DNA of 64,000 nt from Elusimicrobiota bacterium (GCA_042563375.1 JBHPMF010000001.1:11007-75006), one strand, 5' to 3'. Positions 4,824-56,330 are shown, numbered from the stretch's first letter. Made by a program: numbers and translations. Notes: generated by a model from the letters alone, not told the origin.

Positions 4824-4888
4824 GGATCCCGAATCAAGTTCGGGATGAATATGATACATCTCCGGTAGGGGATGCATTATATTCATTT
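4824..4888 (-). repeat. Copy 1 of a conserved ~65-bp double-hairpin element that begins at the TGA stop of rnc and ends ~20 nt before the ACAD ribosome-binding site
   Basis: Near-identical copies at 49823-49887 and 56267-56330. Two inverted repeats: gaatat(g/a)a..tctcc / ggggA..tatattc and atcccgaa / ttcgggat. Confidence 0.7.
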
Positions 4889-5614
4889 GGCTTGAGCCTG
4901 GCGCAAATAAGCCAGTGCTTCTTTTGCGCCGCTTTGCTCTGCTTCCTTCTTGTTCTTTCCTATGCCTCTTCCTAAAAATTTACCCCTGAATACAACATCA
5001 ACCTGGAATGTCTTCTCGTGTTCCGGTCCCCAGCTTTTGGTTAAGCGATATTCAGGGATGCTTTTGTACTTTTTCTGTATGATCTCCTGAAGGCGGCTTT
5101 TATAATCCCTGAGGATAAACCGTTTCTTCTTGCTTATCCATTTGTCGATTATCAACTCATGGCAGTGTTTGATGCCGCTGTCCAGGTAGATCGCCCCGAT
5201 TATCGCCTCAGCGCAGTCTGCTAAAATGCTCTCTTTTTCCCTGCCGGCATGCTCGAGTTTTCCATTCCCAGAGCCATCGTCAAAGAGAACGAATTCTTCG
5301 AGACTCAGGTATTTGGCCAAGTCAAGAAGACTTCTCTTTGAAACGAGCATAGACTTGAGCTTTGAAAGCCTCCCTTCGTCAGATGTCGGAAACCGTTCAT
5401 ACAAATGAGATGCTATCAGCATGTTAAACACGCTGTCTCCCAGGAATTCAAGCCTTTCATTTGAGAAGGGAAGGCGTTTCCTTTTAGCGTAGGAAGAATG
5501 CAACAGGGCAAGTTCAAGGTGTTTTGAATCCTTGAATGTTATGCCCAGCCTTTCTTCCAGGGCGTCAATGATTTGGGGCTGTACTGCTGATGTATCCACT
5601 TTGTCAGGACACAA
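4883..5614 (-). CDS. rnc: Ribonuclease III
   Basis: ERLEFLGDSV signature of the RNase III catalytic domain plus a C-terminal dsRBD. It lies downstream of acpP. Confidence 0.9.
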   Translation of the reverse strand: MCPDKVDTSAVQPQIIDALEERLGITFKDSKHLELALLHSSYAKRKRLPFSNERLEFLGDSVFNMLIASHLYERFPTSDEGRLSKLKSMLVSKRSLLDLAKYLSLEEFVLFDDGSGNGKLEHAGREKESILADCAEAIIGAIYLDSGIKHCHELIIDKWISKKKRFILRDYKSRLQEIIQKKYKSIPEYRLTKSWGPEHEKTFQVDVVFRGKFLGRGIGKNKKEAEQSGAKEALAYLRQAQAK

Positions 5615-5660
5615 CCCTACCTGATAGCTTTACGTAATCAGGCGGTGTTTTCGCTGAAAG

Positions 5661-5912
5661 TTACTTTTTTCCGTGTGCTTTGATGAATTCTATTGCTTGT
5701 CCGACGGTTTGGATCTTTTCAGCTTCTTCATCAGGAATCTCAGCGTTGAATTCCTCTTCAAGTGCCATAACGAGTTCCACTGTATCGAGGGAGTCAGCGC
5801 CCAGATCATTGACGAAATGTGCCGGTGGATTAACTTCTGATGCATCAACCCCAAGTTGTTCCACGATGATCTTCTTTACTCTTACTTCAATATCCTGTAC
5901 TGCTTCTGCCAT
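5661..5912 (-). CDS. acpP: Acyl carrier protein
   Basis: [20 protein letters not shown] motif with the phosphopantetheine-attachment serine. Confidence 0.92.
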
Positions 5913-6002
5913 TTTGTTTCCTCCGTTTGTTAGCGTGTTTAAGCTATAAATTACCTTATCATCTTATAATTTAACTGTCAACTGTATTTATGCTAGCAAA
6001 TC

Positions 6003-6058
6003 CGCTTCTTATTCGCGTTCATTCGCGCGTCTTTTCATTCGCGTTAATTCGCGTATCC
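6003..6058. promoter_or_regulatory. Array of four direct ATTCGCG (CGCGAAT on the coding strand) repeats in the fabG-acpP intergenic region. Candidate operator or promoter array for acpP.
   Basis: ttattcgcgttcattcgcgcgtcttttcattcgcgttaattcgcgtatccgc, read directly. Confidence 0.3.
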
Positions 6059-6060
6059 GC

Positions 6061-6801
6061 TTACATATGCAGTCCGCCGTTTACTCCCAGAACCTGTCCA
6101 GTGATATAGCATGAATCATCACCGCTTAAAAACAGGCAGGCTTTGGCTATTTCCTCAGGCTCGCCAAAGCGCCCCAGTGGCGTTGTTGTCATGAAAGCTT
6201 GCTTTAACTTTTCCGGTAATACATCAGTCAGGCGTGTCCTGACAAATCCCGGCGCGATAGCATTGACCAAAACGTTGCGGCTTCCGACTTCTTTTGCCAG
6301 GGATTTTGTCATGGCTATGACTCCGCCCTTTGAAGCAGCGTAATTGGTTTGGCCGGCATTGCCCATAAGTCCGACAACGCTTGAGATATTGACTATCCTG
6401 CCGCCTCTTTGTTTCATCATGATGGGAGTGCAGGCTTTCAGGAAGTTGAATGTTCCCTTAAGATTGACGTCAATGACCATGTCCCAGTCTTTTTCAGTCA
6501 AGCGCATGATCAGGTTGTCTTTTGTTATGCCCGCGTTATTAATGAGGATGTCTACGCGGCCGAATGCTTCCTGAGTTTTTTTGGCTATGGCTTCGCATTC
6601 ACTTAAATTTGTGACATTGCAGCATGCTGTCATGACCCCGTCTGATCCCCCGCCTATTTCCTTGGCTGTGTTTGCGAGAGTCGCTTCGTCAAGGTCGCAA
6701 AGCATCAGTTTGGCCCCCTCTTCCTTGAAGAGTTTTGCCGTGGCTTTGCCTATGCCCTGAGCTCCTCCTGTTATGATCGCTACCTTATCTTTTAATCTCA
6801 T
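6061..6801 (-). CDS. fabG: 3-oxoacyl-[ACP] reductase
   Basis: Short-chain dehydrogenase/reductase with TGGAQGIGKA and the NAG...YAASK catalytic tetrad pattern. Position is between plsX and acpP. Confidence 0.9.
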   Translation of the reverse strand: MRLKDKVAIITGGAQGIGKATAKLFKEEGAKLMLCDLDEATLANTAKEIGGGSDGVMTACCNVTNLSECEAIAKKTQEAFGRVDILINNAGITKDNLIMRLTEKDWDMVIDVNLKGTFNFLKACTPIMMKQRGGRIVNISSVVGLMGNAGQTNYAASKGGVIAMTKSLAKEVGSRNVLVNAIAPGFVRTRLTDVLPEKLKQAFMTTTPLGRFGEPEEIAKACLFLSGDDSCYITGQVLGVNGGLHM

Positions 6802-8611: not shown

Positions 8612-9768
8612 AAAAAAAGCCGCTTGTATAACACTTCCTGGTCTTTGACCATCTTGTTTATATCAAATTCCGCGTCTATACTGGATGCCGCGCATTTGGA
8701 CATTTTATCCCGCAGCTGCGTGTCGCTTAAGATATCGCTTACATGCTTGGTGATGCTTTTAAGATCCGCGCAGTCCGATATGAATCCGTTTTGCCCGTGT
8801 ATAACCACTTCCTTGACCCCGTCTGTCGCGTAGGCGCATACGGGGATGCCGGCGCAAAGGGCTTCAAGGACGCTTCTGGGCAAGCCTTCCCAGAGGCTTG
8901 TGAGCACAAAAATATCCGCGGCTTTCAATAGGTCCGCGGTATCTTCTCTCCAGCCTAAATGCCTGGAATTTTCCGGGATATCACCCAGAATGTTGTTTTT
9001 ATCATCCCCGCCAACGAATAAGAACAGGGCGTCGGGAAGCTTGCTCTTGAGAGCTTGCGCTATATTGAAGAAATCTTTGGGATTTTTTTGTTTCTTAAGA
9101 TTTCCGATGGTCACGGCGATCTTGCGCGTGCTGTTGAAACCGAGCCTCTCGCGTATCGTATCCCTGGACTCGGATTTTTTGTATTTTGCTATATCAATTC
9201 CGCTTCGTATCAGTACCTGCTCTGCTTTTCCGGGGATACAATGTTCCTTGGCGATGCGGATATTTTCCTTTGATACATACACAAGCGCGGTTGTGATTTT
9301 GGCTGTGATCTTCTCGATCCATATCAAAAAATTTCTTAAAGGCCGTTTCTGTCTGTCATGAAAGCCGAATCCATGGAAAGTATGGATGATAACAGGAGTG
9401 CCTGCGAAATAGGCCGCCCAGCGTCCCAATATCCCGGCTTTGGAGGAGTGTGTGTGGATGATATGGGGTTTTAAGCGCCTGATAAGCAGGAATATCTCGA
9501 TAAAAGCCAATAAATCAGATAGCGGCCGGATTTCTCTTATCAGATGCTTCAGCCAGAACGTGGGGCAAGTCGATCTGAAATTTTCAGCTTTGCTGTCAAA
9601 ATAACCTCCTGCGCCGGAGGCAAGGACCGGCTCGAATCCTGTCCTGTCAAGATGGGTCACGGTGTGAAGCGTGTTCTGCTGCGCCCCCCCGAATTCAAGT
9701 TTTGTGATCAGGTGAAGAACCTTTATCATATAAAGTGTTAGACGTAAAACGTGAGACGTGAGAAGCAA
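8608..9768 (-). CDS. Glycosyltransferase family 4 (GT-B fold)
   Basis: GT4-like C-terminal domain (EGLPRSVLEALCAGIPV). First gene of the glycan locus. Confidence 0.8.
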   Translation of the reverse strand: MLLTSHVLRLTLYMIKVLHLITKLEFGGAQQNTLHTVTHLDRTGFEPVLASGAGGYFDSKAENFRSTCPTFWLKHLIREIRPLSDLLAFIEIFLLIRRLKPHIIHTHSSKAGILGRWAAYFAGTPVIIHTFHGFGFHDRQKRPLRNFLIWIEKITAKITTALVYVSKENIRIAKEHCIPGKAEQVLIRSGIDIAKYKKSESRDTIRERLGFNSTRKIAVTIGNLKKQKNPKDFFNIAQALKSKLPDALFLFVGGDDKNNILGDIPENSRHLGWREDTADLLKAADIFVLTSLWEGLPRSVLEALCAGIPVCAYATDGVKEVVIHGQNGFISDCADLKSITKHVSDILSDTQLRDKMSKCAASSIDAEFDINKMVKDQEVLYKRLFL

Positions 9769-9890
9769 GAAGCGTGAGACGCAAGACGTGAAACGTGAGA
9801 AGTGTGCCAGAAAACAGAATTCAGAATTTTTTTCTTGCTTTTTATTTTTAACATTTCACGTTTCACATCTCACGTCTTACGTCTCGCGTT
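9737..9890. repeat. Heptamer-periodic long hairpin, family 1 site A (GTGARAC/ACGTGAG units). The right arm overlaps the stop of the FAD oxidoreductase gene.
   Basis: Left arm 9737-9804, loop containing cagaaaacagaattcag, right arm 9852-9890. The stop (tca, rc TGA) at 9870-9872 is inside the arm. Confidence 0.75.
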
Positions 9891-11198
9891 CTTCAAGATC
9901 GTTTCCGCGGCTTGTTTCCCCTCAAGCAGGGCTTCTTCCATAAAGGAATATTTCCAGGCGCCGTACCTGCCTATGGAAAGAATATTATTCGCTTTCAGGT
10001 AGTTCATGACTTTGGGCATGATGAGCTGTCTGGTTTTTGTAAATATCACGTAGCCCGGATCGATCCCACACCACTCTTTGGCGAGAATCCTGTCTGAGGA
10101 CTTAAGAAGTCCGATTGATTCGAGTTTTCTTATTGCGGCACGTTCGTTTTTGTTGAAATCAAAGCGACTTGGACTTCTTGTCGCAAATTCAATGTAGAAC
10201 GAGGTCGCGTTTGTTGGGGCGACTTTTGGGGTGAAATTGCTGGCGACTCCAACGCGATAAAAAGGAAATTTGGGCTCAGGAAAATAAATCCAGTGTTTAT
10301 CGGTTATGTTCCCCCTGTTCACGCCGAGGTTCAGGTTAAAAACAGCGGCATATGGCAAGGTGGACGCGCGCTTAAACCAGGATGGAGTTCTTGAGGTAAA
10401 GCGCTTGGCAAAGAACGGCAGGGGGCTCGTGTTTATCAGCCAGTCGTACTTAAAGCTTGCGTATGGCGTGTGCACTGTGCGCTTTTTCGCATCTATCTCA
10501 AGCGCCTCGTGCCCCGGATAAATCTCAGATTTTTTTAATCTGCCGGCAATCGCGTTTGGCAGAGACTGGATGCCTCCGACTCGCGGATAATAAAATAATG
10601 CGTTATAACCCAGAGGCTTATCCTGGTTTTTTATAGCCCCATAAAGCACTTCTTCCCGAGTCGGGACAGGCACAAAACCTTTTACCCATTCCGCGGTCAT
10701 TTGATTCAGGTCGCAGCAGAAAAGTTTCCTGTTATACGGGTTCATGAAATATTTTGATATTCCCTTTCCGAACACCTCAACGCACCATTTGGCAAAGCTG
10801 GAGTTCGAAGAAGGCTCTTTGAATTTGTCGCGCGCTTTAAGAAAATGAGCCACGCATTGGGCGGCTGTTTTGCCGGGCAGTTCCGAGAGATTAGCCTGGA
10901 ATGGATATTTGCTGAACTTTTTTTGATTGAATATGAAACTTTTGCGCTTATGCCGGCAAAGGTTGTTTTTCAAAAGACCGTTTAATATCCATTTTGTGGT
11001 ATATGGGTTATGCAGATGCAGGAGATGTCCGGAAATGTCAAATGTAAATCCATTATGCAAACTTGAGCTGGCCAATCCGCCAAGGCGCTCGTTTCTTTCA
11101 AGAATAGAGATCTCAACGGGTTTATTTCCGGAAAATTTCTCAATATGGAATGCGCTAGATAGGCCTGCAAGGCCTCCGCCGATAATCACGACCTTCAT
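9870..11198 (-). CDS. FAD-dependent oxidoreductase (amine oxidase / protoporphyrinogen oxidase-like fold)
   Basis: N-terminal GxGxxG dinucleotide-binding motif (VVIIGGGLAGLSSA). Exact function not assignable. Confidence 0.7.
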   Translation of the reverse strand: MKVVIIGGGLAGLSSAFHIEKFSGNKPVEISILERNERLGGLASSSLHNGFTFDISGHLLHLHNPYTTKWILNGLLKNNLCRHKRKSFIFNQKKFSKYPFQANLSELPGKTAAQCVAHFLKARDKFKEPSSNSSFAKWCVEVFGKGISKYFMNPYNRKLFCCDLNQMTAEWVKGFVPVPTREEVLYGAIKNQDKPLGYNALFYYPRVGGIQSLPNAIAGRLKKSEIYPGHEALEIDAKKRTVHTPYASFKYDWLINTSPLPFFAKRFTSRTPSWFKRASTLPYAAVFNLNLGVNRGNITDKHWIYFPEPKFPFYRVGVASNFTPKVAPTNATSFYIEFATRSPSRFDFNKNERAAIRKLESIGLLKSSDRILAKEWCGIDPGYVIFTKTRQLIMPKVMNYLKANNILSIGRYGAWKYSFMEEALLEGKQAAETILKNARRKT

Positions 11199-11339
11199 AA
11201 TTTCTCAAAATAAACGAAATTAAATTTCATTTGTACCATTCATATTCTCATTCGTACACCATTCGCGTTGAGGCTCAATTGAATCAGCGCGAATTAATAC
11301 GAATTATATACGAATACGTACAAATAAAACAGGAAAGTT

Positions 11340-12015
11340 ATTTATCTAACGAGGACGTATGGACTTTGCTCAGAATGGTTCCTTTTTGATGCGGTGAGCA
11401 CTTCGACTTCGCTCAGTACGTTGCACGCTCTATCGAGCCATAGGGGATGTGTTAGTGGACTTGGATCCCGGATATTTACCACATTGCACTTTATATTAAT
11501 CCCGGATTTTGCATTAGCCGTCAAATCGGGAATACAAAGACGGGACTATCTTTTCCGTTTTCTAATGCAACGCAATTAGAAAACACGACTAAAATACACT
11601 GATTGCCAACGGATTTCATTCTTTAATTTTTCAACCTAGAATCCTTCAGTTCACCTGCTATTACCGTCGGGAATGGCGGAACTTTCCTATTGCCCCCTCA
11701 CCCTGCCCTCTCCCTCAAGGGAGAGGGGAAAGAGAAAGTCAGCTGAGAATTCCGGGTTTAAGGAAGAATCCTAATGCAAAATCCGGGTTAATAGCGGATA
11801 TGTGTTAAATTCTGGGATGAATTAAACGCATCTCCGGCCCTTCGACTTTGCTCAGGGTGGTTCCTTCTCGATGTGGTGAGCGGAGTCGAACCATAGGGGA
11901 TGCATCAGCGGATTTGGATCCCAGACATTTACCACATTGCACTTTATATTAATAGCGGATATGTGTTAAATTCTGGGATGAATTAAACGCATCTCCGGTA
12001 GGGGATGCGTTTAAT
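11340..12015. repeat. Tail of the ~800-bp ORF-free intergenic region (11199-12015). It carries a duplicated ~115-bp segment (11355-11500 and 11838-11951), direct 47-bp repeats (11792-11838 and 11951-11998) and a stop-embedded hairpin (11978-12020).
   Basis: Self-similarity read directly. No protein-coding frame of 60 aa or more. Confidence 0.5.
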
Positions 12016-13077
12016 TCATTTTACGCTTTTTAGCTTTGATAAGTATTTGGCAAAAAGCACAAGTTCCGCGATCACGGCCGCATAGATCAGGATCACGATC
12101 ACCTCATTGGAGATCAGCGTGACTATCCAGGAAAGGATTGAAAGCACTATGGCGACTGACGCCATGGCGAAAAGTATTTTTCTGGGCGTGAAGCCGTACG
12201 TTTGAAGGCGATGAGCCACATGGTCCTTGCTTCCCTTTACGGGCGACTTTCCTTGCCGCAGACGGATATAGATCAGGAAGAATGTCTCAAAGATCGGGAT
12301 TGCCAGTATAAAAAGAGGAGCAAACACAGCATAGGGGTTATTACTGGTGTAAGAACAGCCAAGGCTCATTGTGGCCAGAAGATAACCCAGGACAAGCGAT
12401 CCTCCGTCGCCCATGAATATCTTGAATTTGTTCGTCAGGTTGTACGGCAAGAATCCAAGCGAGCCTCCGATCGCAGCGGAAGCCAGGATGTTGACGTATA
12501 TGGCTTCTGAGGGAAAGCCTATGGCAAGGAAAGCCAAAGACGCGATCGCTATCTGTGTTCCCGCGATGCCGTCAATAACGTCGATCAGGTTTATGGCATT
12601 TGTGATCCCGATGATCCATATGAATGACACGAGCATGGCAAAATATTCAGGGCTTACAAAATGGATCCTGACATTAGCCCAAACAAGGATCCCTGCCGCT
12701 ATGCTTTGAATAATGAATTTCCAGGCAATAGGCACTCCGCCTTTTTTTATGTCATCAATGAATCCCAGGCAGAATACTATCATCGCCCCGATCAATATGA
12801 ATCTGAAATTGTGTATGGTTCCCGTGGGGTAGTGTGTGAATAAGCGCACTATGACAAGGGTAATGATGATCGACATGAATATGGCTGTGCCGCCGAGTCT
12901 GGGTATAGGTCTTTTGTGCGATTTCAGCCTTGGGTCAGGCAGGTCAAAGAGGTTAAAACGCTGCGCGATCCGGCTTATCAAAGGGGTCAGGGTGGCTGAA
13001 AGCACGAATGCCAGCAGCATCAATACGATATAAGTCACTGCGCCGCCGCTTGGCTGGGACCAATCGTATGTGTTCAT
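12016..13077 (-). CDS. Polyprenyl-phosphate N-acetylhexosamine-1-phosphate transferase (WecA/MraY-like GT4 initiating transferase)
   Basis: About 10 TM helices with MraY/WecA-family motifs (DDIKKGG, NxxNxxDGIDGL-like NLIDVIDGIAG). Confidence 0.8.
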   Translation of the reverse strand: MNTYDWSQPSGGAVTYIVLMLLAFVLSATLTPLISRIAQRFNLFDLPDPRLKSHKRPIPRLGGTAIFMSIIITLVIVRLFTHYPTGTIHNFRFILIGAMIVFCLGFIDDIKKGGVPIAWKFIIQSIAAGILVWANVRIHFVSPEYFAMLVSFIWIIGITNAINLIDVIDGIAGTQIAIASLAFLAIGFPSEAIYVNILASAAIGGSLGFLPYNLTNKFKIFMGDGGSLVLGYLLATMSLGCSYTSNNPYAVFAPLFILAIPIFETFFLIYIRLRQGKSPVKGSKDHVAHRLQTYGFTPRKILFAMASVAIVLSILSWIVTLISNEVIVILIYAAVIAELVLFAKYLSKLKSVK

Positions 13078-13081
13078 AATA

Positions 13082-20377: not shown

Positions 20378-20405
20378 GGCAGGTTATAAGGGCTAAATGC
20401 TAAAA

Positions 20406-20490
20406 AGCGTGAAACGCGAGACGTGAAACGTGAGAAGTTAGGCATGGAATTTTCTTTACTTTTCACGTTTCACGTCTCGCGTTTCACGCT
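20406..20490. repeat. Heptamer-periodic hairpin, family 1 site B: a perfect 33-nt inverted repeat with a 19-nt loop. The right arm supplies the last codons (..KRET*) of the upstream GT2.
   Basis: agcgtgaaacgcgagacgtgaaacgtgagaagt / acttttcacgtttcacgtctcgcgtttcacgct. The stop is at 20470-20472. Confidence 0.8.
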
Positions 20491-26565: not shown

Positions 26566-26600
26566 GACCGTATCACACCGCTTAACGTATTATGTCCGCT

Positions 26601-26634
26601 AACAGAAGCACAGGAGCACAGGAGCACAGGAGCA
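26601..26634. repeat. Direct 8-mer array (gcacagga x3.5) in the pilM-pilN intercistronic gap
   Basis: agcacaggagcacaggagcacaggagcacaa, read directly. It shares its unit with the inverted repeat at 29388-29474. Confidence 0.8.
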
Positions 26635-26641
26635 CAACTCG

Positions 26642-27790
26642 TCATTTCTGCCAGTCTCCGTATTTTCTCAGAGCAAGACCGCAAGCCACAGAGAATGCGG
26701 GTCCGGCCTGGATCAGGTTTTGATAAGCAGGAGGTATTTTGAGCAGCGAAAGCGGATTGAGGATCTCAACAGGCAGCTTGAATTCTTTCGAGAGATAAGC
26801 GTCCAGGTTCTTAAGCAGGGCTCCGCCTCCGCTTAAATAGATTTTTGTTATTTCACGGTCCATTCCATGAGTGAGATAAAAATCAATGGATTTATGCACC
26901 TCCGCCAGAAGCTCATTAGCTACGGTTATCAAGCATTGAGACGCCTGGGTATCAGCCGGTTCCCCTGAGGAAAGGGTGCCTTCCTTATCATCTTCTCCCG
27001 TGTTGATCTTGCTGTCCCTTTTCATTTTTTCGCTTGCCTGTGCGTCCTGGCCCAGACTGCTTTCGATGGCGTTTGTGAATGCGTTGCCTCCGATATTAAC
27101 GTCCCTGACAACGCGCGGCGTCCCGTCTTCCACGATTACCAGGTTCGTTATAGTAGAGCCGATATTCACCATAAGCGTTGTTTGCTGGGATTGTTGATCG
27201 GAAACAAGCGATAAAAGATTGGTCACGGCAAAAGCATCAACATCCACGATAATGGGCCGCAGTCCCGCCTGCGCAAGTATTGATAATCGTCCGTCGATCA
27301 GATCTTTTTTCGCAGCCACTAAAACAGTGTCATATTTCTTCTGATTCTCCTCGACTATCTCCTTGATCACATAATAATCAAGATTAACATCGCGGATATC
27401 GTAAGGTATAAACGGTTCAGCCTCGAATGGAAGGGTGCGTTCCAATTCCTGGTGTCCTATAGCCGGCAGTTTTGCTTCGCGCACGATCACGGAACTTCCG
27501 GATATGCCTATGGCGATCGGAGATTTTTTAAGTTTTGCGTCGCTGAGCATCTTCTTTATCTCGCCTATCATGTAGATCTGCATGGCTTCTTCATCACCGG
27601 AGATGCTGCGCATATCAAGTTCCTTATATGCCGCAAAGTCAGCCGCGTATTGATTGCCCTCAGATTTGATCCTGATCGATTTTATCGCGCTCGATCCTAT
27701 ATCAACAGCAAGAATAGGTTTTTTGAAGCTGATCGCGTCCTTTACCTTTGTAATAATAGGTTTGAGTTTTTCAGTGATATTAGCCTTCAT
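26642..27790 (-). CDS. pilM: Type IV pilus assembly ATPase-fold protein PilM
   Basis: Actin-like/FtsA-fold protein. It is the first gene of the pilMNOPQ block. Confidence 0.85.
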   Translation of the reverse strand: MKANITEKLKPIITKVKDAISFKKPILAVDIGSSAIKSIRIKSEGNQYAADFAAYKELDMRSISGDEEAMQIYMIGEIKKMLSDAKLKKSPIAIGISGSSVIVREAKLPAIGHQELERTLPFEAEPFIPYDIRDVNLDYYVIKEIVEENQKKYDTVLVAAKKDLIDGRLSILAQAGLRPIIVDVDAFAVTNLLSLVSDQQSQQTTLMVNIGSTITNLVIVEDGTPRVVRDVNIGGNAFTNAIESSLGQDAQASEKMKRDSKINTGEDDKEGTLSSGEPADTQASQCLITVANELLAEVHKSIDFYLTHGMDREITKIYLSGGGALLKNLDAYLSKEFKLPVEILNPLSLLKIPPAYQNLIQAGPAFSVACGLALRKYGDWQK

Positions 27791-28565: not shown

Positions 28566-28670
28566 TCTGTAAATGACAACATTCGCGAAGCTGCCCAGGA
28601 TCAGGCCGATGATTCCCGCAAGAATGTATATGTCGATTATTTAAGTTAAATCCTCGTTTGATGTGAAATC

Positions 28671-28706
28671 AAAAAACCCGTCCCGAGGTCTCGGGACGGG
28701 TTTTTC
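28671..28706 (-). terminator. Rho-independent terminator of pilA
   Basis: On the minus strand: acccgtcccgag-acc-tcgggacgggt followed by TTTTTT, 11 nt after the pilA stop. It could act bidirectionally (A-run on the other side). Confidence 0.75.
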
Positions 28707-28716
28707 TCATTGTATC

Positions 28717-29190
28717 TTAATACTCTTGCCAGATTTTACCTTTGCTGTCATTGTGACTGCAGCCGATCCATACATGTCCCCAGTTGATGTTCGTGTTGTT
28801 GTAGATATACTCCCATTGGCCGGCATCTGTGGTCGATGAATACATAACCACCTCGTTAAAGGTGTTGTTTTCACCGTGACCAGTGTTGCCTTGGTCAGCT
28901 ACTGCAGGAATAACGATGTTTGGTATCTCTTTGAGGTATTTGGAGTTATTCGTTAATGCTCCCTCTGAAGTTGCTGATTGCGGGTAGATACCATCATTGT
29001 CACCATAGTAGATAGCCAGAGAACTTCTTACAGTGCTCAGGTTCCCTTTGCTTTTGCCTTCCTGCGATTTCTTTACAAGGTCAGCGAACTTGGGTATCGC
29101 GATTGCCGCGAGAATACCAATAATTGCCACCACGATCATAAGTTCGATCAAGGTGAATCCCAATTCGCCTGCTTTTCTTGTTTTTAGCAT
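28717..29190 (-). CDS. pilA: Type IV major pilin
   Basis: Class III signal peptide KAGELGFTLIELMIVVAIIGILAAIAIP (G-F cleavage and N-methylation site, Glu+5). C-terminal Cys pair. Confidence 0.85.
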   Translation of the reverse strand: MLKTRKAGELGFTLIELMIVVAIIGILAAIAIPKFADLVKKSQEGKSKGNLSTVRSSLAIYYGDNDGIYPQSATSEGALTNNSKYLKEIPNIVIPAVADQGNTGHGENNTFNEVVMYSSTTDAGQWEYIYNNTNINWGHVWIGCSHNDSKGKIWQEY

Positions 29191-29387: not shown

Positions 29388-29474
29388 AACGTGCTCCCGT
29401 GCTCCAGTGCTGCTGTTTTTGCAAAGGAAATTCTTCTGTTAACAGGAGAACCGGAGCACAGGAGCACTGTAGCA
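29388..29474. promoter_or_regulatory. Inverted repeat built from GTGCTCC / GGAGCAC 8-mers in the divergent pilA-pilB promoter region
   Basis: aacgtgctcccgtgctccagtgctgctg ...27-nt T-rich loop... caggagaaccggagcacaggagcactgtagcac. Confidence 0.6.
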
Positions 29475-29544
29475 CAATTCACTTTGCTTATTGACAAAGC
29501 TCAAAACAGGGGCTAAATAGATAAATGAGGGAGAGTATGTAAAT

Positions 29545-34390: not shown

Positions 34391-34527
34391 GCAGGAGAAA
34401 GTATACAGTAGACAGCATACAGGGGAGGAGATGGTACGTTTCTAATTAAAAGAGGAATTCTTTTTTCTTATATGCTGCCTGCTTTCTTCTGTGTGCTGCA
34501 TGCTGTCTACTGTATGCTTTCTTCTTA
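34391..34527. repeat. Heptamer-periodic hairpin (AGCATAC/AGTAGAC units, family 3) ending exactly at the recG stop codon
   Basis: Left arm agcaggagaaagtatacagtagacagcatacagggga. Right arm tgctgcctgctttcttctgtgtgctgcatgctgtctactgtatgctttcttcttatga. Confidence 0.7.
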
Positions 34528-36666: not shown

Positions 36667-36830
<164 letters not shown>

Positions 36831-39270: not shown

Positions 39271-40993
39271 TTTTCATTAAACGGGTCAGGCGCGATCCTA
39301 AGTCCGTTGTTTGCGCGCAGGCCGTTTCCTCGACGATCTCGCCTTTTTCCATCACTATAATACGGTTGCAAAAACTCAGGGTCTTTAGGCGGTGGCTTAT
39401 GACAAGTGCGGTCCTGTTTTGCAGCAATTCCTTGATGGCAGCGAGAACGAATTCTTCGGACTCAGGGTCCAGATTGCTCGTTGCTTCGTCAAGGATCAGG
39501 ATCTTCGGGTTTTTCAGTATTGCCCGTGCTATTGCTATGCGCTGCTTTTGGCCGGCGGACAGTCTTGCTCCACGCTCACCAACGAGTGTTTTAAAGCCAT
39601 CAGGCAGGTATTCGATAAACTCAAGAGCATAGGCTTGCGAGGCTGCGGATTTTATCTCCTCGAATGTTGATCCGGGCTTGCCCATCATAATGTTTTCTTC
39701 TATTGAGCTGTCAAAAAGAAATGCATCCTGAGATACAGCGCCGAGCAATGTCCTCAATGACGGGATAGAGAGGTCTTTGATATCCGTGTTGTCTATCGTG
39801 ATTCTTCCTTGAGCAGGGTCGTAAAATCTGCCAAGCATCATTGCCATTGTTGTTTTTCCGCTGCCGCTTGGTCCGGCAAGCCCCAGGATCTCGCCTTTGG
39901 GTATTTTCAGATCCATGCTTTTAAGTATTGCATGTCCGGGTTCGTACGAGAAGCTTACCTGTTCGAACGCGATCTGCTTTTCAATGGTTGCGATCGTCTT
40001 TGGCAGTGCAGCGTTGATGATACTCGGCTTTAAATCCAATATCTCGAGCACGCGCTTCCAGCTGGTAAGACCCATCTGGATGATCGGATTGACCTGGGCA
40101 AGGTGCTTCATCGGCATATACGCGGCAAACGATGCGCTCAAAAACGCCATGAATGAGCCGGGGCTCCATGCGTCATTTATCACCTGAAGCCCTCCGGCGA
40201 ATAAGATGAGCGTGATGATCAGAGAGCTTAAGAATTCATTAAGGGACGGAGCCAGGGCTGTTATCTTCTGGAATTTAAGCAAAGCTTTGTAGTGCGCGGT
40301 ATTCTGTTCGTCAAAATGTTTAAGCCACTTTTTTTCATACAGGAAGACTTTGAGCATTGTGAGTCCGTTAAGACCTTCCGAGATTATCGAGTATAGGACT
40401 GCGACGAGTTCCTGTATCCTTCTTGTTATTTTGCGCAGCATCATGGTGAATAGTATGAAAAGGCCCGCAAAAACAGGCATTGTAATGATTATGGCTGTGG
40501 CAAAACGCCAATTAAGATAGAAGATCAGCATCATCAGGAACGTGACCGTAAGTCCATCTCTTATGATATAGAGCGGCGCGTTCGCCACCATATTGGATAT
40601 GGCCATAACGTCATTTGTGGATCTTGAAAGGGCTTCTGAGCTTTTTGCTCTTGTATGGTATGAGTGGTCCAAGGAAAGCAGTTTTTCAAGGATCTGAGCC
40701 CTGATCGTTTTAGCTGCAGCATGACCGATTTTCGCCATATGGTAATTAAGAAGGTATGAGAAAAGGCTTTTAGCGAAGAATATGATGGGTATTATAAGGG
40801 AGAGGGTTTTAAGCATCTCTATGTCTTTCTCGATGAAGATCTGGTCTATGACCGGCTTGACAAGGCCCACGGAGCCTGATGAGAGAGCTGCCACAAAGCA
40901 CATGGACACGGCTGCGACAGAGAAATCCTTAGCGTGTGATGTTAAGTACGGAAGAAGCCGCTTCCAGGATGGCCGGTGTGTATTATCCGGCAT
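39263..40993 (-). CDS. ABC transporter, fused permease/ATPase (MsbA-like lipid A / lipid exporter)
   Basis: Six-TM N-terminal domain. Walker A GPSGSGKTT, ABC signature LSAGQKQR, Walker B ILILDEATS. Adjacent to the lpx cluster. Confidence 0.8.
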   Translation of the reverse strand: MPDNTHRPSWKRLLPYLTSHAKDFSVAAVSMCFVAALSSGSVGLVKPVIDQIFIEKDIEMLKTLSLIIPIIFFAKSLFSYLLNYHMAKIGHAAAKTIRAQILEKLLSLDHSYHTRAKSSEALSRSTNDVMAISNMVANAPLYIIRDGLTVTFLMMLIFYLNWRFATAIIITMPVFAGLFILFTMMLRKITRRIQELVAVLYSIISEGLNGLTMLKVFLYEKKWLKHFDEQNTAHYKALLKFQKITALAPSLNEFLSSLIITLILFAGGLQVINDAWSPGSFMAFLSASFAAYMPMKHLAQVNPIIQMGLTSWKRVLEILDLKPSIINAALPKTIATIEKQIAFEQVSFSYEPGHAILKSMDLKIPKGEILGLAGPSGSGKTTMAMMLGRFYDPAQGRITIDNTDIKDLSIPSLRTLLGAVSQDAFLFDSSIEENIMMGKPGSTFEEIKSAASQAYALEFIEYLPDGFKTLVGERGARLSAGQKQRIAIARAILKNPKILILDEATSNLDPESEEFVLAAIKELLQNRTALVISHRLKTLSFCNRIIVMEKGEIVEETACAQTTDLGSRLTRLMKND

Positions 40994-41003
40994 AAATATC
41001 TCG

Positions 41004-41175
41004 CAAGACGTTAGACGTTAGACGTGAGAAGCAGGAAGCGTGAAATGTGAGATGTGAAACGTGAGAAGTGCAAAGCGTGAAACGTGAGACGTGAAACATG
41101 AGAAGTTCAGCAGAAAATAAGATTCTTATTTTATCTTTTAACATTTTACGTCTCACGTCTTGCGTCTCACGTCTT
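41004..41175. repeat. Family 1 heptamer hairpin site C. The left arm (about 104 nt) is internally expanded to three times the length of the right arm (35 nt). The right arm contains the lpxB stop.
   Basis: Left arm gcaagacgttagacgttagacgtgagaagcaggaagcgtgaaatgtgagatgtgaaacgtgagaagtgcaaagcgtgaaacgtgagacgtgaaacatgagaagt. Right arm acattttacgtctcacgtcttgcgtctcacgtctt. Confidence 0.75.
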
Positions 41176-44434: not shown

Positions 44435-44540
44435 GCAGGACAGCATGCAGTAGACAGTATACAGGGAAGATAAATAATTCTTAATCCAAGGAAATCCTTT
44501 TCTTTCCTGTATGCTGCCTACTGTCTGCTGTATGCTTTTA
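44435..44540. repeat. Family 3 heptamer hairpin (AGCATGC/AGTAGAC/AGTATAC units) between lpxI and lpxA, ending 2 nt before the lpxA stop
   Basis: agcaggacagcatgcagtagacagtatacagggaag / ctttcctgtatgctgcctactgtctgctgtatgctttta. Confidence 0.7.
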
Positions 44541-46479: not shown

Positions 46480-47235
<756 letters not shown>

Positions 47236-49787: not shown

Positions 49788-49822
49788 TGTGCTTCAGGAA
49801 GACAGGGGTTATAGATCCGGAT

Positions 49823-49887
49823 GGATCCCGAAACAAGTTCGGGATGAATATAATACGTCTCCAATAGGGGACGCATTATATTCATTT
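49823..49887 (-). repeat. Copy 2 of the TGA-embedded double-hairpin element (clpC stop to bamA start)
   Basis: ggatcccgaaacaagttcgggatgaatataatacgtctccaataggggacgcattatattcattt. Confidence 0.7.
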
Positions 49888-52428
49888 TTCTTTCTTTGAT
49901 GTTCCAATCTTGCCTGGGAATGGATTCGGGCTGAAAATAAGTTTCTTTTCTTTCTCGTCAATGTCCACGTGTATGGTGTCGTTTCGCTTGAATTTCTTGG
50001 ACAGTATCTCCTCGACAAGCGGATCTTCAAGATTCTTCTGGATCGTGCGCAGAAGGGGCCTTGCCCCGTAGTTCGGATCGAATCCGGTTTGCACAAGAAA
50101 GTCTTTTGCTTCCGGGGTAAGGTCGAACTGGAAATTCTGCTCCTTGAGCTTTGCAATGGATTTCTTAAGCGCGAGTTCCAGGATCAGCCTCATATGATCC
50201 TGATTAAGAGGGTGGAAGACGATGAGTTCATCGACCCTGTTGAGAAACTCCGGATTAAATACCCTTTTGACTTCTTCCATCACGATTTCTTTCATTTTCT
50301 GGTAATCTTTTGATTCGCGGACTTCTTCATCAGAGATGAAACCCAATGATTTGCCTTTTGAGATGAGTCTTGCCCCGACATTGGAAGTCATGATCACGAC
50401 TGTATTTTTAAAACTTACTTTTCTGCCGAGACTGTCTGTCAGAGAGCCTTCATCCATGATCTGGAGCAGGATATTGAAAACATCCGGATGCGCTTTTTCG
50501 ATCTCATCAAGGAGCACAACGGAGTATGGTTTTCTTTTTACAGCTTCGCTGAGCTGTCCGCCTTCTTCATATCCGACATATCCCGGAGGAGCTCCTATTA
50601 ACCGTGAGACATTGAATTTTTCCATGTATTCTGACATGTCCAGCCTTACGATCTGTTCTTCATTGTTGAACATGTATTCAGCCAAGGTTCTTGCGAGCTC
50701 TGTTTTGCCGACCCCGGTCGGCCCAAGAAACACAAAGCTTCCGATCGGCCGCTTTGGATCCTTCAGACCGGTTCTGCTCCTTCTTATGGCTTGTGAGACC
50801 GCTTTGATCGCCTCATCTTGGCCTATCATGCGATTGTGAAGCTCTTCTTCCATGTGCAGGAGCTTTTCTTCCTCACTTTCAGTGAGTTTAACAACGGGTA
50901 TTCCGGTCCACTTGGAGACAATGAGCGATATGTCATCAGATGTAATGACAGGGGTCTCGCTTTCCCTGGTTTGCTTCCATTTCTTCTTCATGTCCTCAAT
51001 GGTTTTCCTGAGTTCCCGCTCCTTATCCCTCAACTTGGCTGCTTTTTCGTAGTCCTGGGTGGCTATCGCCTCATTTTTAGAGTTAACGATACCTGCAAGT
51101 TCTTCTTCCTTTTCCTTAATAGAGAGCGGAGGCTGGTTTGAGGAGAGCTTTGCTCTTGATCCTGCTTCATCAAGCAGATCTATGGCTTTGTCAGGAAGGA
51201 ACCTGTCTGAGATGTATCTGTCGGAAAGATTCGCCGCTGACCGGATAGCATCATCATCATATTTGATCTTATGATGTTGTTCGTATTTTTCCTTGATGCC
51301 GTTTAAAATATCAATTGTCTGGTCCACTGTGGGCGGATCGACCATCACAGGTTGAAAACGTCTTTCAAGAGCTGCGTCGTGTTCTATGTGTTTCCTGAAT
51401 TCATCTATGGTTGTTGCGCCTATGCATTGCAGTTCCCCGCGGGCTAACGGCGGCTTTAAAATATTAGCGGCGTCTATCGCGCCTTCAGCTGCGCCCGCTC
51501 CGATCACAGTGTGGAGCTCGTCAATGAACAGGATAATGGCGTTTTTCGCTTTTCTTATTTCCTCGATTATGTTTTTAAGTCTTTGTTCGAATTCACCGCG
51601 GTACTTTGTGCCTGCCACGACTGCAGCCAGGTCCATCGTTACAACGCGTTTATTGGCCAGAAGTTCAGGAGCATCGCCTGTTGCGATCTTTTGGGCCAGG
51701 GCTTCGACTACAGCTGTTTTCCCCACCCCGGGTTCGCCTATCAGAACAGGATTGTTTTTTGTTCTTCTGGAGAGGATCTGTATCACCCTCTCTATCTCAT
51801 TCTGTCTGTTAACAACAGGATCGAGTTTTTGTTCTCTTGCCAGTTGTGTTAGATCCCTTCCAAATTCATCCAGGGTTGGGGTTTTTGATTTGCCCTTTGC
51901 TGCTGGTCCGCCTGAGGGGCCTCCCTGCTGGCGGCCTGTTTCTTTGGCTTCGGATTCACCAAGGAGGTTTAAGACCTCTTCTCTGACGACTTCAAGGCGG
52001 ATACCGAGGTTTTCAAGGACTCTGGCAGCGACTCCTTCTTCTTCCCTGATAAGGCCAAGAAGGATATGTTCTGTCCCAACATAGGTGTGCCCCATTTTCT
52101 GGGCTTCTTCAACAGCGAGTTCCAGGACTTTTTTAGCGCGTGGAGTGAATGGGATTTCACCCAGCTGCATGATATTATCCCCGGCTCCCACGATCTTCTC
52201 TATCTCAGCCCTGACCCGTTTTAAGTCAACTCCGAGATTAGCCAGTACTTGGGCTGCAACGCCTTCATTTAAGGCAACAAGGCCTAAGAGTACGTGCTCA
52301 GTGCCCACATAATCGTGATTAAGGCGTTTTGCCTCTTCCTGAGCGATTAAAATCGCCCTTTGGGCTCTTTCTGAAAAACGGTTATAGAACATTGCCATGG
52401 TGCATAATCCTCCGAGTCCATTATACAA
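49882..52428 (-). CDS. clpC: AAA+ chaperone ClpC (Clp_N repeats, two NBDs, short M-domain with UVR-like motif)
   Basis: Two Clp_N repeats. Walker A GEPGVGKT and GPTGVGKT. The M-domain carries the DYEKAAKLRDKE UVR-type motif and is too short for ClpB. Confidence 0.85.
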   Translation of the reverse strand: MYNGLGGLCTMAMFYNRFSERAQRAILIAQEEAKRLNHDYVGTEHVLLGLVALNEGVAAQVLANLGVDLKRVRAEIEKIVGAGDNIMQLGEIPFTPRAKKVLELAVEEAQKMGHTYVGTEHILLGLIREEEGVAARVLENLGIRLEVVREEVLNLLGESEAKETGRQQGGPSGGPAAKGKSKTPTLDEFGRDLTQLAREQKLDPVVNRQNEIERVIQILSRRTKNNPVLIGEPGVGKTAVVEALAQKIATGDAPELLANKRVVTMDLAAVVAGTKYRGEFEQRLKNIIEEIRKAKNAIILFIDELHTVIGAGAAEGAIDAANILKPPLARGELQCIGATTIDEFRKHIEHDAALERRFQPVMVDPPTVDQTIDILNGIKEKYEQHHKIKYDDDAIRSAANLSDRYISDRFLPDKAIDLLDEAGSRAKLSSNQPPLSIKEKEEELAGIVNSKNEAIATQDYEKAAKLRDKERELRKTIEDMKKKWKQTRESETPVITSDDISLIVSKWTGIPVVKLTESEEEKLLHMEEELHNRMIGQDEAIKAVSQAIRRSRTGLKDPKRPIGSFVFLGPTGVGKTELARTLAEYMFNNEEQIVRLDMSEYMEKFNVSRLIGAPPGYVGYEEGGQLSEAVKRKPYSVVLLDEIEKAHPDVFNILLQIMDEGSLTDSLGRKVSFKNTVVIMTSNVGARLISKGKSLGFISDEEVRESKDYQKMKEIVMEEVKRVFNPEFLNRVDELIVFHPLNQDHMRLILELALKKSIAKLKEQNFQFDLTPEAKDFLVQTGFDPNYGARPLLRTIQKNLEDPLVEEILSKKFKRNDTIHVDIDEKEKKLIFSPNPFPGKIGTSKKEK

Positions 52429-54561: not shown

Positions 54562-54566
54562 TTTAT

Positions 54567-54673
54567 ACGTAAGACGTGAAGCGTAAGACGTGAGAAGTTC
54601 GGCAGAAAACAGAATTCAGGATTTTTTCTTTTTTTGCTTTTAACATCTTGCGTCTTACGTCTCACGTTTTACG
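54567..54673. repeat. Family 1 heptamer hairpin site D. Its loop shares cagaaaacagaattcag with site A. The right arm supplies the ..VKRET* end of McsA.
   Basis: acgtaagacgtgaagcgtaagacgtgagaagt / acatcttgcgtcttacgtctcacgttttacg. Stop TAA at 54655-54657. Confidence 0.75.
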
Positions 54674-55020
54674 ATCTCCTTGATCTTGTCGCGAAGGATG
54701 GCGGCTTTTTCGTATGCTTCCTTTTTTATGGCTTCCGAGAGGTCTGATTTGAGTTTTTTAAGATCCTCTTTTGGAGCTGTTTTTTTAGCTCTTGGATCCG
54801 CTATCTTGCTTGGAGAATATGAGATCCCTGTATGTTTTGAGCTGCCGTGTATTTTTTTCACTACCTCCTGCATAAGCTTATGAAAAGTGTCATAACACTG
54901 TGCGCATCCCACAAAACCGGTTTCCTTAAAAGCAGTGTATGTTGTAGCGCAGTTGGGGCATTTGAGCACCGGGGGCTTGCTTGCTGGCCTGTGATAGGTT
55001 CCGGAGGCCGCTCCCGGCAT
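54655..55020 (-). CDS. mcsA: McsA-like activator of protein arginine kinase (zinc finger plus UVR motif)
   Basis: CPNC...CAQC zinc ribbon and C-terminal EAYEKAAILRDKIKEI UVR-type motif. The frame stays open upstream to the ilvE stop and includes another CPDC. Confidence 0.6.
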   Translation of the reverse strand: MPGAASGTYHRPASKPPVLKCPNCATTYTAFKETGFVGCAQCYDTFHKLMQEVVKKIHGSSKHTGISYSPSKIADPRAKKTAPKEDLKKLKSDLSEAIKKEAYEKAAILRDKIKEIVKRET

Positions 55021-55209
55021 AAGATTGCCGATGATATCAGGAAGATTGAATCCGGGCGTTTCAGAAGGGTCGAATGCAAAGCCTTTGACAAGGCCCTGCT
55101 CGCTGGCGCAGTCCGGGCAAAGGTTTAGATTCAGGATTTCCGAGCCTGACTGGCCCTGAAAATGTATGGTGGCTTTATTCTTGCCGCAGGATTGACAGAT
55201 CGCTATTGT

Positions 55210-56250
55210 TTAGACCTCTGACTTTTCGTAAACCGGTGTTCCTGTGGAGTTGACAAGGTCAGCGTAGAGTTCCCTGATCTTGTAAGTGATCGGGCCTTGC
55301 TTTCCCTTGCCGATCTTCCTGCTGTCGATCTCCGTGACGCCTATTATCTCAGCGCCTGTTCCCGTAACGAACACTTCCTTCGCGTTGTATAAGTCAGGAA
55401 GGGTGAATGGTTCCTCGCGCAAAGTCATCTGAAGCTTGGTTTGGATAAGCTCGATAACGCAAGCGCGCGTGATCCCCGGAAGGATCCCGATCCAGGTCGG
55501 AGTTGTGCGGATCTCGTTGTCTCCTACAAGAAATATATTATCTCCTGAACATTCTGACACGTGTCCTTCAGTTGTAAGAAGTATTGCTTCAGCTGCTCCT
55601 GCGCGCGTAGCTTCCGCTCTTGCCATGACATTGTTCAGGTAATTGAGTGATTTTATGCTCGGAGAGAGGCACTGTCCCGGAACGCGCCTCAAAGAACTTG
55701 TTATGACTTTTAAACCCTTTTCGTAATTGCCTGCAGGGTAAAGCTCTATTTTATCCGCTATTACGATAACTGTTGGTTTTTCACACTTGCGGATATCCAA
55801 TCCCAGGTCGCCGACACCGCGCGTGACCAAAACGCGGATATAACCGTCTTTGAGCTGATTGTTTTTTACGGTAGTAAGGATTATTTTCTCGATCTCCTCA
55901 AAAGTGTAGGGGATATCAAGCATGATGCCTTTTGCGCTCGCGAATAACCTCTCGACATGCTCGCTTAATTTGAACACGCGTCCGTTATAAGCCCTGATTC
56001 CCTCAAAGATGCCGTCTCCGTAAAGCAATCCATGATCGAATGTTGATATCTTGGCGTCTTTTTTATCAAGCCACTTTCCGTCAATGAATATTTTCATATC
56101 TTTACCTCGTTTCTCCATTTTATATTTTGAATCAGTGTTATTGGTAGCGGGCAGATCATCGGTTCGCTCAAGGATTCCAACGCAAGAATCTTTTCTGTTC
56201 ATTTTTTCTCCTTCTCCGATCAAAAACTCGGCCTTTAGGCCGGAGAGCAT
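55210..56250 (-). CDS. ilvE: Branched-chain amino acid aminotransferase. Likely true start MKIFIDGKW at 56097, with RBS ggagaaacgaggt upstream.
   Basis: Fold-type IV PLP enzyme with the E(G)xxxxxR-type motifs of IlvE. The listed N-terminal 51 aa overlap a terminator hairpin. Confidence 0.85.
   Translation of the reverse strand: MLSGLKAEFLIGEGEKMNRKDSCVGILERTDDLPATNNTDSKYKMEKRGKDMKIFIDGKWLDKKDAKISTFDHGLLYGDGIFEGIRAYNGRVFKLSEHVERLFASAKGIMLDIPYTFEEIEKIILTTVKNNQLKDGYIRVLVTRGVGDLGLDIRKCEKPTVIVIADKIELYPAGNYEKGLKVITSSLRRVPGQCLSPSIKSLNYLNNVMARAEATRAGAAEAILLTTEGHVSECSGDNIFLVGDNEIRTTPTWIGILPGITRACVIELIQTKLQMTLREEPFTLPDLYNAKEVFVTGTGAEIIGVTEIDSRKIGKGKQGPITYKIRELYADLVNSTGTPVYEKSEV
56226..56250 (-). terminator. 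Intrinsic terminator-like hairpin (cggcc-taaa-ggccg followed by aGTTTTT on the minus strand) after the lolD 3' element and before the probable ilvE start
   Basis: Read directly from the sequence. Confidence 0.45.
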
Positions 56251-56266
56251 GCTTTATGCAGGCTCT

Positions 56267-56330
56267 GGATCCCGAATCAAGTTCGGGATGAATATAACGC
56301 GTCTCCGGCAGGGGACGTGTTATATTCATT
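56267..56330 (-). repeat. Copy 3 of the TGA-embedded double-hairpin element (lolD stop)
   Basis: ggatcccgaatcaagttcgggatgaatataacgcgtctccggcaggggacgtgttatattcatt. Confidence 0.7.

Follow-up and report, generated by a model that had tools for sequence, protein, structure and literature searches.

We analyzed a 64,000-nt stretch of an Elusimicrobiota genome (GCA_042563375.1, JBHPMF010000001.1:11007-75006; hereafter, the window) that carries copies of a short double-hairpin repeat, here called Family 2, at four loci, all of them downstream of open reading frames (ORFs). Every copy lies on the minus strand, which is the sense strand of the flanking genes, and Pfam identified the products of the upstream genes as RNase III, an AAA+ protein of the ClpC type, a lolD-like ABC ATPase and a glycosyltransferase of family 4 (GT4). 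Copy 1 (4823–4888) follows rnc (ORF 4883–5614) and is next to an acyl-CoA dehydrogenase gene that starts at 4801; copy 2 (49822–49887) follows the clpC-like gene (ORF 49882–52428) and is next to a bamA ORF beginning at 49787; and copy 3 (56266–56331) follows the lolD-like gene (ORF 56326–56997). These three near-identical copies had been proposed in an initial annotation of the window, and all are present, at most 1 nt from where they had been placed. The unit is 66 nt long, and copies 1–3 share 58–60 of 66 positions in pairwise comparison (88–91%). Repeat finding revealed a fourth copy (11915–12021) 3′ of the GT4 gene (ORF 12016–13077), which likewise starts with AAA-TGA and whose second hairpin has a long loop.

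Copies 1–3 were the only window matches to a 29-nt core pattern with up to three mismatches, a pattern that gave no match in 100 shuffled sequences. A covariance model of the kind the initial annotation had advised, built from the four copies and run with filters off, recognized all four and no other member in the window, scoring copies 1–3 at 94–95 bits and copy 4 at 59 bits; the number expected by chance in 64 kb was 0. A 16-bit match at 28658–28712, a G+C-rich hairpin followed by a T-rich run after a gene ending at 28717, looks like an ordinary bidirectional terminator and not like a member of the family. The window's ClpC places it in Elusimicrobiota, with the best matches coming from groundwater metagenome-assembled genomes (MAGs; 79–80% amino-acid identity), and its RNase III is 100% identical to an Elusimicrobiota protein at NCBI, with the next relatives at only 59–64%. 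Our census of the family covered the window and ~1.4 Mb of relatives' loci. Among these, 80 clpC loci (1.23 Mb) searched with the covariance model held no copy after clpC and one full copy elsewhere, at 65 bits, in the MAG JACQWW01 (L037), and this is the fifth copy referred to below.

Each copy begins with AAA-TGA, continues into a long hairpin (hairpin 1) and ends with a shorter one (hairpin 2) that directly abuts it; read 5′ to 3′ on the minus strand (4888 down to 4823), copy 1 is AAATGAATATAATGCATCCCCTACCGGAGATGTATCATATTCATCCCGAACTTGATTCGGGATCCA. Hairpin 1 is an 18-bp stem (TGAAT...ATTCA) with a 4-nt loop, is A+T-rich apart from a conserved G+C apex, CCCC-N4-GGAG, and includes the TGA itself in its stem. 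A C·A mismatch stands in this apex in every copy. Hairpin 2 of copies 1–3 consists of ATCCCGAA, a 5-nt loop (CTTGA or CTTGT) and TTCGGGAT, followed by CCA. The architecture first described, a stop-codon TGA followed by two hairpins of which the second has 8 bp, therefore stands, with two corrections: the first stem had been put at about 15 bp, and the loop of hairpin 2 at 2 nt. In copy 1 the parts are AAA at 4886–4888, the TGA at 4883–4885 as the first 3 nt of hairpin 1 (4846–4885), hairpin 2 at 4826–4846 and the CCA tail at 4823–4825. The corresponding positions are 49882–49884 (TGA), 49845–49884 (hairpin 1), 49825–49845 (hairpin 2) and 49822–49824 (CCA) in copy 2, and 56326–56328, 56289–56328, 56269–56289 and 56266–56268 in copy 3. 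Copy 4 has the same hairpin 1 (11979–12018; TGA at 12016–12018), perfectly paired save for the conserved C·A, and a longer hairpin 2 (11918–11979) whose stem is ATCCCAGA/TCTGGGAT and whose interior, 46 nt long, lengthens the helix, before CCA at 11915–11917.

The hairpins are maintained by paired changes, as the initial annotation had noticed: among the four window copies, both sides change at 4 of the 18 hairpin 1 pairs, and 93.5% of the alignment's cells are paired, compared with 28–47% in registers slid by 1–3 columns. The stem of hairpin 2 covaries in copy 4 as well. The L037 copy, which keeps AAATGAAT and the C·A mispair although a neighbouring pair has flipped from C-G to G-C, adds further compensatory changes in both hairpins, including two more compensated pairs in hairpin 2 (CCCCGAC/GTCGGGG), whose loop is 4 nt. 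The ends of the element (AAATGAAT... and ...GGGATCCA) are not inverted repeats of each other. AAAT stands on both sides of copy 1 only and not of copies 2, 3 or L037, giving no consistent target-site duplication, and the AAA(T) found 5′ of hairpin 1 in all five copies is inseparable from the element itself. Two candidate features inside the element were discarded, namely small ORFs of 7 codons on the plus strand of copies 1 and 2, which are not conserved in copy 3, and a −10-like TATAAT in an arm of hairpin 1, which is not conserved in copy 4 or L037 and was not flagged by a promoter scan.

In the window, the stop codon of all four upstream ORFs is the element's TGA, preceded by AAA. This TGA pairs with TCA in all five copies and so belongs to the element, in agreement with its earlier assignment to the conserved block. 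The accompanying statement that the element always begins at a stop codon is true of the four window copies and breaks down outside the window, where the L037 copy, between fabZ and lpxA, starts 62 nt after the fabZ TAA; Family 2 is not bound to stop codons. A double stop, TGA-ATA-TAA, had also been described and is present in copies 1–3, with TGA-ATT-AAA in copy 4 and TGA-ATA-AAA in L037 taking its place. If insertion sites were random among the final codons of genes, all four copies would use the element's TGA frame with a chance of ~(1/3)^4, or ~0.01, and copy 1 in the other two frames would add 17–22 residues, from which we conclude that the stop register is real. Next to their homologues, the RNase III and ClpC of the window have C-termini of ordinary length, and the sequence 3′ of copy 1, AAATAAAAGGGGGAACTAAATT-ATG, fits an intact ribosome-binding site for the downstream gene.

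Orthologous junctions in relatives are tight and lack the element. Gene order around rnc is conserved in three relatives (L101, L102 and L103), and the distance from rnc to the acyl-CoA dehydrogenase gene, 81 nt in the window, is 8 nt in L102 and L103 (TAG-GAGGACAC-ATG) and 122 nt in L101, where the spacer holds a different hairpin, of the heptad type described below. From the GT4 gene to the amine oxidase gene there are 817 nt in the window, as against a single nucleotide in L101 and 4 nt in L102. The fabZ–lpxA spacer spans 179 nt in L037, with its copy, and 12 nt in L105–L108, the nearest relative of L037 (LpxA 70% identical); that value was also the best LpxA match, and we found no relative of L037 close enough for an empty site to be compared at the nucleotide level. 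The L037 site is not orthologous to any window copy, since lpxC directly precedes lpxA in the window. Because the orthologous junctions are tight or empty, we read the elements as insertions at the very end of the upstream ORF, and the simplest reading of these comparisons is that they inserted into junctions that were originally tight. The connection to RNase III raised by the initial annotation appears weak, given that one of five copies follows rnc and that the rnc junction of relatives is empty or holds a different repeat.

Two side observations concern these junctions. In L101 (MAG JACQPE01, 10739–10860), rnc ends AAG-TGAATATAATAC, 12 nt identical to the start of Family 2, followed by the heptad-type hairpin plus T7; TGAATATAATAC may be what is left of an earlier Family 2 copy that another repeat overwrote, or a coincidence, and TGAATATAA occurs 31 times in the ~1.4 Mb examined. 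In the fabZ–lpxA spacer of L037 (8256–8434), three palindromic repeats stand side by side with the Family 2 copy in the middle, flanked by a GTCATTGCGAGG-type unit and by a TGTC-ATTCCCGC-GAAA-GCGGGAAT-CCA unit whose core is that of the dRS3-type CGTC-1 repeats of Neisseria (PMC3733652).

We propose that copies persist where they land among a gene's final codons and in the frame that lets the element's TGA close the ORF, with only a lysine added, and the overlap with stop codons at four of four loci would follow because only copies that close the upstream ORF at once persist. A second, unrelated repeat family in the window, built of heptads, also supplies stop codons to upstream genes, and the junctions compared in relatives measure 1–12 nt. 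From these two observations we infer a survival filter in tight operons, under which a repeat must close the upstream ORF and spare the downstream ribosome-binding site. That the heptad family shows the same overlap points to a general filter and not to a function specific to Family 2. As an alternative to a filter, the pattern may reflect a target preference for A-rich gene ends.

The 817-nt spacer after the GT4 gene (11199–12015), otherwise a long "intergenic" stretch, is explained as a nest of repeats. It contains three head-to-tail Family 2 units, namely copy 4 and two disrupted copies that repeat finding and alignment placed within 11356–11914 on the minus strand. In both disrupted copies the loop of hairpin 1 is split between CCCCTA and CCGGAG by an insert, "Y", of 56 or 85 nt. 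The middle copy has the 56-nt insert, and its long hairpin 2 is in turn split by a 287-nt miniature inverted-repeat transposable element (MITE; 11501–11787), which is not a Family 2 member; its terminal inverted repeats (CCCGGATTTTGCATTAG) match perfectly over 17 bp, and its 5-bp target, TTAAT, is duplicated. The uninterrupted target of this MITE is seen at 11945–11953, and after its removal in silico, 11356–11837 aligns with 11838–11998. The MITE end sequence had no other match in the window or in the relatives' loci examined. The third copy is truncated and carries the 85-nt version of the same loop insert. Tandem clustering and nested insertion of this kind are usual in repeat DNA and hard to reconcile with a tightly constrained RNA.

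The Y inserts themselves lie at 11838–11893 and 11356–11439, in the hairpin 1 loops of the two degenerate copies. They contain CCCTGAGCAAAGTCGAAGGG, a small palindrome in the style of the CCTGAGCTTGTCGAAGG units that cluster in one IMG/VR contig (L095), and the longer Y has an internal 29-nt duplication-like insert with CTGAGCGAAGTCGAAG. We rejected a tRNA-like reading of Y, as its T-arm-like string, GGTTCGACTCC, has no matching 5′ stem; the string is unique in all DNA examined.

Hairpin 2 closely resembles the CGTC-tagged REP superfamily of small palindromic repeats, which includes dRS3 of Neisseria and RPE-4 and RPE-6 of Rickettsia (Di Nocera, De Gregorio & Rocco 2013, BMC Genomics 14:522; PMC3733652). 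Members of that superfamily occur in five phyla, mostly downstream of ORFs and without a dedicated transposase; their stems are 8–9 bp long and nearly always open with A-T pairs, the first two positions carrying complementary A/T residues, and they have loops of 4–5 nt, a CCA tail and an unpaired 5′ CGTC tag with the variants TGTC and CCTC. Their termini often provide the stop codon of the flanking ORF, and some families are regularly tied to longer palindromes (PMC3733652). Like these repeats, Family 2 lies downstream of ORFs at its four window loci, occurs in a cluster and has no known transposase, and its hairpin 2 combines a stem of 8 bp that begins A-T/T-A, a loop of 5 nt (4 nt, GAAA, in L037; expanded in copy 4) and CCA after the hairpin in copies 1–4 and L037. 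The complementary A/T residues are present in ATCCCGAA/TTCGGGAT of copies 1–3 and in ATCCCAGA/TCTGGGAT of copy 4, and L037 departs at the second stem position (ACCCCGAC/GTCGGGGT).

The difference lies in the tag. In the position of CGTC, the window copies have ATTC and L037 has TATC, sharing only the final TC, and in Family 2 these residues are not free but paired with TGAAT at the base of hairpin 1; a direct scan returned the window units of copies 1–3 as ATTC-ATCCCGAA-N5-TTCGGGAT-CCA. The usual 5′ tag is thus replaced by the base of hairpin 1 in a composite whose order is AAA-TGA, hairpin 1, hairpin 2, and what has dispersed is this composite and not a REP alone. In Family 2, moreover, the stop codon comes from the associated palindrome and not from the REP tag, and the host phylum, Elusimicrobiota, lies outside the five listed. 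Because the tag is absorbed into hairpin 1, we file Family 2 as REP-like and not as a strict member of the CGTC superfamily, with a hairpin 2 that would be either derived from CGTC REPs or convergent with them.

Related palindromes occur well beyond the window. The exact core of hairpin 2, CATCCCGAACTTGNTTCGGGAT, is present in 14 IMG/VR contigs with a G+C content of 0.39–0.63, in unrelated context and with CGTC or AGTC in front of it. In loci of gut Elusimicrobiaceae (L057, 13740–13880; L061, 21940–22030), near-identical units are found in both orientations, hairpin 2-type clusters lie on sphingomonad plasmids (for example L104, 2480–2790, on the Sphingobium plasmid NZ_CP060123.1), and canonical CGTC- or TGTC-tagged REPs with CCA tails are found in the relatives L007, L037 and L061. 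The initial annotation had regarded a match to a known mobile or REP family as the outcome that would speak against a selected structure, and such a match is now largely in hand, both in the stem, loop and tail of hairpin 2 and in the recurrence of its core across unrelated genomes. All 21 specified bases of the CGTC-type palindrome GTCATCCCGAACTTGTTTCGGGATC are the same in the 14 IMG/VR contigs (L087–L100), and together with the close variants in sphingomonad plasmids and gut Elusimicrobiaceae this makes for a striking cross-phylum identity in a repeat with no known transposase.

We propose that Family 2 is a lineage-specific, REP-like palindromic DNA repeat in which a long hairpin is fused to a hairpin of the CGTC-REP type and which lies at operon junctions, a reading to which we assign a probability of roughly 0.7. 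It is best read as a new family among the small palindromic (REP-type) repeats common in bacteria and not as a new regulatory RNA; the unit is dispersed next to unrelated genes. By analogy with what has been proposed for REPs and REPINs and their Y1 transposases (RAYT or IS200-like), Family 2 would be non-autonomous DNA that spreads, or formerly spread, through single-stranded hairpin intermediates, with an enzyme recognizing the hairpins and the fixed mispair. The RAYT of Escherichia coli requires unpaired residues at the loop edge (PMC3733652), and a fixed mispair near the loop is, by the same analogy, the kind of feature that hairpin-recognizing enzymes may use. The structure of the unit, with two hairpins and neither inverted repeats nor a duplication, is compatible with IS200/IS605-type elements, although no TnpA was found among the window ORFs scanned.

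Several observations weigh against this proposal. No transposase was found among the 30 window ORFs scanned, including no match to Y1_Tnp (RAYT), and the CGTC REPs to which we compare the element likewise have no known transposase. Family 2 shows no terminal inverted repeats or target duplications that would demonstrate transposition directly, and the window and the relatives' loci together yielded only five full copies. The TGAATATAATAC at the rnc stop of L101 hints at long persistence at that site instead of recent insertion. All five copies are oriented with transcription, and two genomes that share only 53% identity in LpxA have both kept the apex and the AAATGAAT block.

These last two observations are what would be expected if Family 2 were a selected cis-acting RNA module of polycistronic mRNAs, which we consider unlikely as the primary explanation. 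Such a module could slow termination or lower upstream translation, shield the upstream cistron from 3′ exonucleases or offer RNase III a place to cleave between cistrons, including feedback on rnc. In its favour, the stop codon sits in the base of the stem in all four window copies, the structure has been kept through double changes, the mispair is conserved across genomes, and copies 1 and 2 lie inside apparent operons without a sense-strand terminator and must be co-transcribed with them. Precedents exist as well, in the Correia/NEMIS hairpins of Neisseria, which are RNase III substrates, and in REPs that lie less than 16 nt from a stop codon, which according to a summary of earlier work cause ribosomes to stall and depress translation (PMC12306157, citing Liang et al. 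2015). Against it stand the orthologous junctions of relatives, which lack the element, the L037 copy, which is not at a stop codon, the functionally unrelated flanking genes, the insertions tolerated in both loops, the occurrence of hairpin 2-type palindromes in both orientations in other genomes, and the second, unrelated repeat family with the same stop-codon overlap. The folding of the two strands points the same way. The antisense strand folds better in four of five copies and equally well in the fifth; non-Watson–Crick positions comprise 2 G·U pairs and 7 mismatches on the sense strand and 7 G·U pairs and 2 mismatches on the antisense strand, most of this difference coming from the fixed C·A mispair of the mRNA, which is G·U on the antisense strand. 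Because the antisense strand folds as well or better, we see no sign of selection on the mRNA fold. The initial annotation had taken the compensatory changes as the mark of a selected RNA or DNA structure and not of a repeat. That argument does not hold here: such changes are also common in the hairpins of mobile REPINs (Bertels & Rainey 2011, PMC3116915) and so do not decide between RNA and DNA, and the empty junctions and nested insertions speak for a repeat.

A role in termination fares worse. On the sense strand, hairpin 2 is followed by CCAAAUAA, CCAUCCGG or CCAGAGCC with no U tract, a terminator scan flagged nothing on the minus strand at the elements, and a separate terminator-like site after copy 3 (56229–56242, minus strand, tail AGTTTTTGAT) agrees with what had been reported after lolD; from the missing U tract and this separate site it follows, as the initial annotation had supposed, that the element is not the terminator. 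A very unlikely variant makes it an intrinsic terminator or insulator for antisense, plus-strand transcription, with hairpin 1 fully paired through G·U and followed by TTT(T/G) from the AAA codon and the A-rich C-terminal codons. The plus strand does fold at −31 to −39 kcal/mol, T-rich tails follow hairpin 1 in copies 2–4, and a consensus scan flagged the plus-strand apex in copies 1 and 2; the flagged "tail", however, is formed by the opposite arm of the stem, copy 1 and L037 have a real tail of only 3 T, no convergent gene or plus-strand promoter was found nearby, and neither hairpin 2 nor the pattern of dispersal is explained. We hold it similarly improbable that the element, at the DNA level, binds a host protein (gyrase, IHF or another nucleoid-associated candidate, as has been proposed for REP/BIME of E. 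coli) and so helps to organize the chromosome where operons meet: its conserved apex and its fixed mispair resemble a recognition feature, and supercoiling roles have been cited for REPs and BIMEs (PMC3733652), but the stop-codon register and the absence from relatives' junctions would go unexplained. Recoding, by a SECIS-like or read-through hairpin that reinterprets UGA, has practically no probability. A hairpin directly at an in-frame UGA does resemble bacterial SECIS geometry, yet an in-frame TAA follows two codons later in copies 1–3, which excludes such a role there, the C-termini are already of normal length compared with homologues, there is no Rfam match, and RNase III, ClpC, the ABC ATPase and the glycosyltransferase are not known to be selenoproteins.

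Family 2 resembles the REPIN/RAYT system (PMC3116915) in being a short, non-autonomous, extragenic hairpin repeat with compensatory changes and tandem clusters, and mobilization through single-stranded hairpins has been proposed for REPINs (PMC3116915). Unlike REPINs, its hairpin 1 is not made of two inverted REPs, the arms not being palindromic themselves, and it has no terminal GTAG tag, GTAG occurring only in the hairpin 1 loop, on the plus strand, in three of five copies (copies 1, 4 and L037). In E. coli, REPs within 15 nt of a stop codon stall ribosomes and lower upstream translation, as one source summarizes it (PMC12306157, on Liang, Rudd & Deutscher 2015). Family 2 shares with the REPs described in that summary a stable hairpin no more than 15 nt away from the upstream gene's stop, here at distance zero; it differs in that the stop lies inside the stem instead of upstream of it, and the effect on translation is putative here.

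Correia/NEMIS elements of Neisseria and other MITEs are small ORF-adjacent repeats that form strong RNA hairpins and can stabilize or destabilize mRNA, and transcribed MITE and REP hairpins in general can stabilize mRNA or be RNase III substrates. Family 2 is likewise small, ORF-adjacent and hairpin-forming, but without terminal inverted repeats or a target duplication, the only true MITE being the nested 287-nt element. Once in place, a Family 2 element would be co-transcribed, and its double hairpin would probably act as a barrier to 3′ exonucleases and a brake on terminating ribosomes, as a side effect or a secondary co-option; by analogy with these other repeats, such an RNA effect is plausible.

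Searches for other kinds of element returned little. Rfam covariance models gave no match at the gathering score in the window and only chance-level matches in 11150–12100, and ARAGORN found no tRNA or tmRNA. The exact hairpin 1 pattern had no match in GTDB species genomes or IMG/VR and six chance matches without a hairpin in JGI metagenome contigs, BLAST gave nothing against phages and only hairpin 2-type matches against plasmids, and literature searches with the element's nucleotide string and its translated peptide found no match. We also set aside a diversity-generating retroelement, there being no adenine-specific pair of template and variable repeats, and integron attC sites, there being no RYYYAAC/GTTRRRY cores.

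Family 2 is a documented case, from an uncultured phylum that has been little studied, in which palindromic repeats sit wedged between the genes of tight operons and provide the stop codon. With it, the known range of the CGTC-type REP hairpin comes to include Elusimicrobiota and IMG/VR contigs. It also illustrates that compensatory changes in a repeated hairpin are insufficient to call a functional RNA. For annotation, the elements define the true 3′ ends of four genes. Two further ideas, which we regard as speculative and unlikely, go beyond the REP-like reading. One is that the element has been domesticated as an "operon punctuation" RNA, in which every terminating ribosome would melt the UGA-bearing hairpin and thereby fix how strongly the upstream cistron is expressed relative to the downstream one, a checkpoint for RNase III or exonucleases would operate, including feedback on rnc, and the C·A mispair with the CCCC-N4-GGAG apex would be the recognition site of a dedicated factor. 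The other is that hairpin 1, dispersing with hairpin 2, could be the missing "handle" that mobilizes transposase-less CGTC REPs. Should the hairpin that holds the stop codon indeed modulate termination or processing, it would offer a small natural module with which cistron ratios could be tuned.

The window holds other repeats in addition to Family 2. The second family consists of inverted CGTGARA/CGTAAGA heptad arrays that form long hairpins between co-directional genes, at 9732–9895, 20404–20488, 40991–41175, 54564–54673 and 57002–57122. Read against the ORF ends, the upstream stop codon lies inside a heptad at four of these five loci (TGA at 9870–9872, 20470–20472 and 41167–41169; TAA at 54655–54657), and because the period is 7 nt, a stop occurs in every frame within three units. 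The repeat finder also reported ATGATGA runs (36670–36759 and 47148–47197), CTGC-rich runs (34457–34520 and 44496–44538) and GGAGCACA octamer runs (26595–26648 and 29435–29480).

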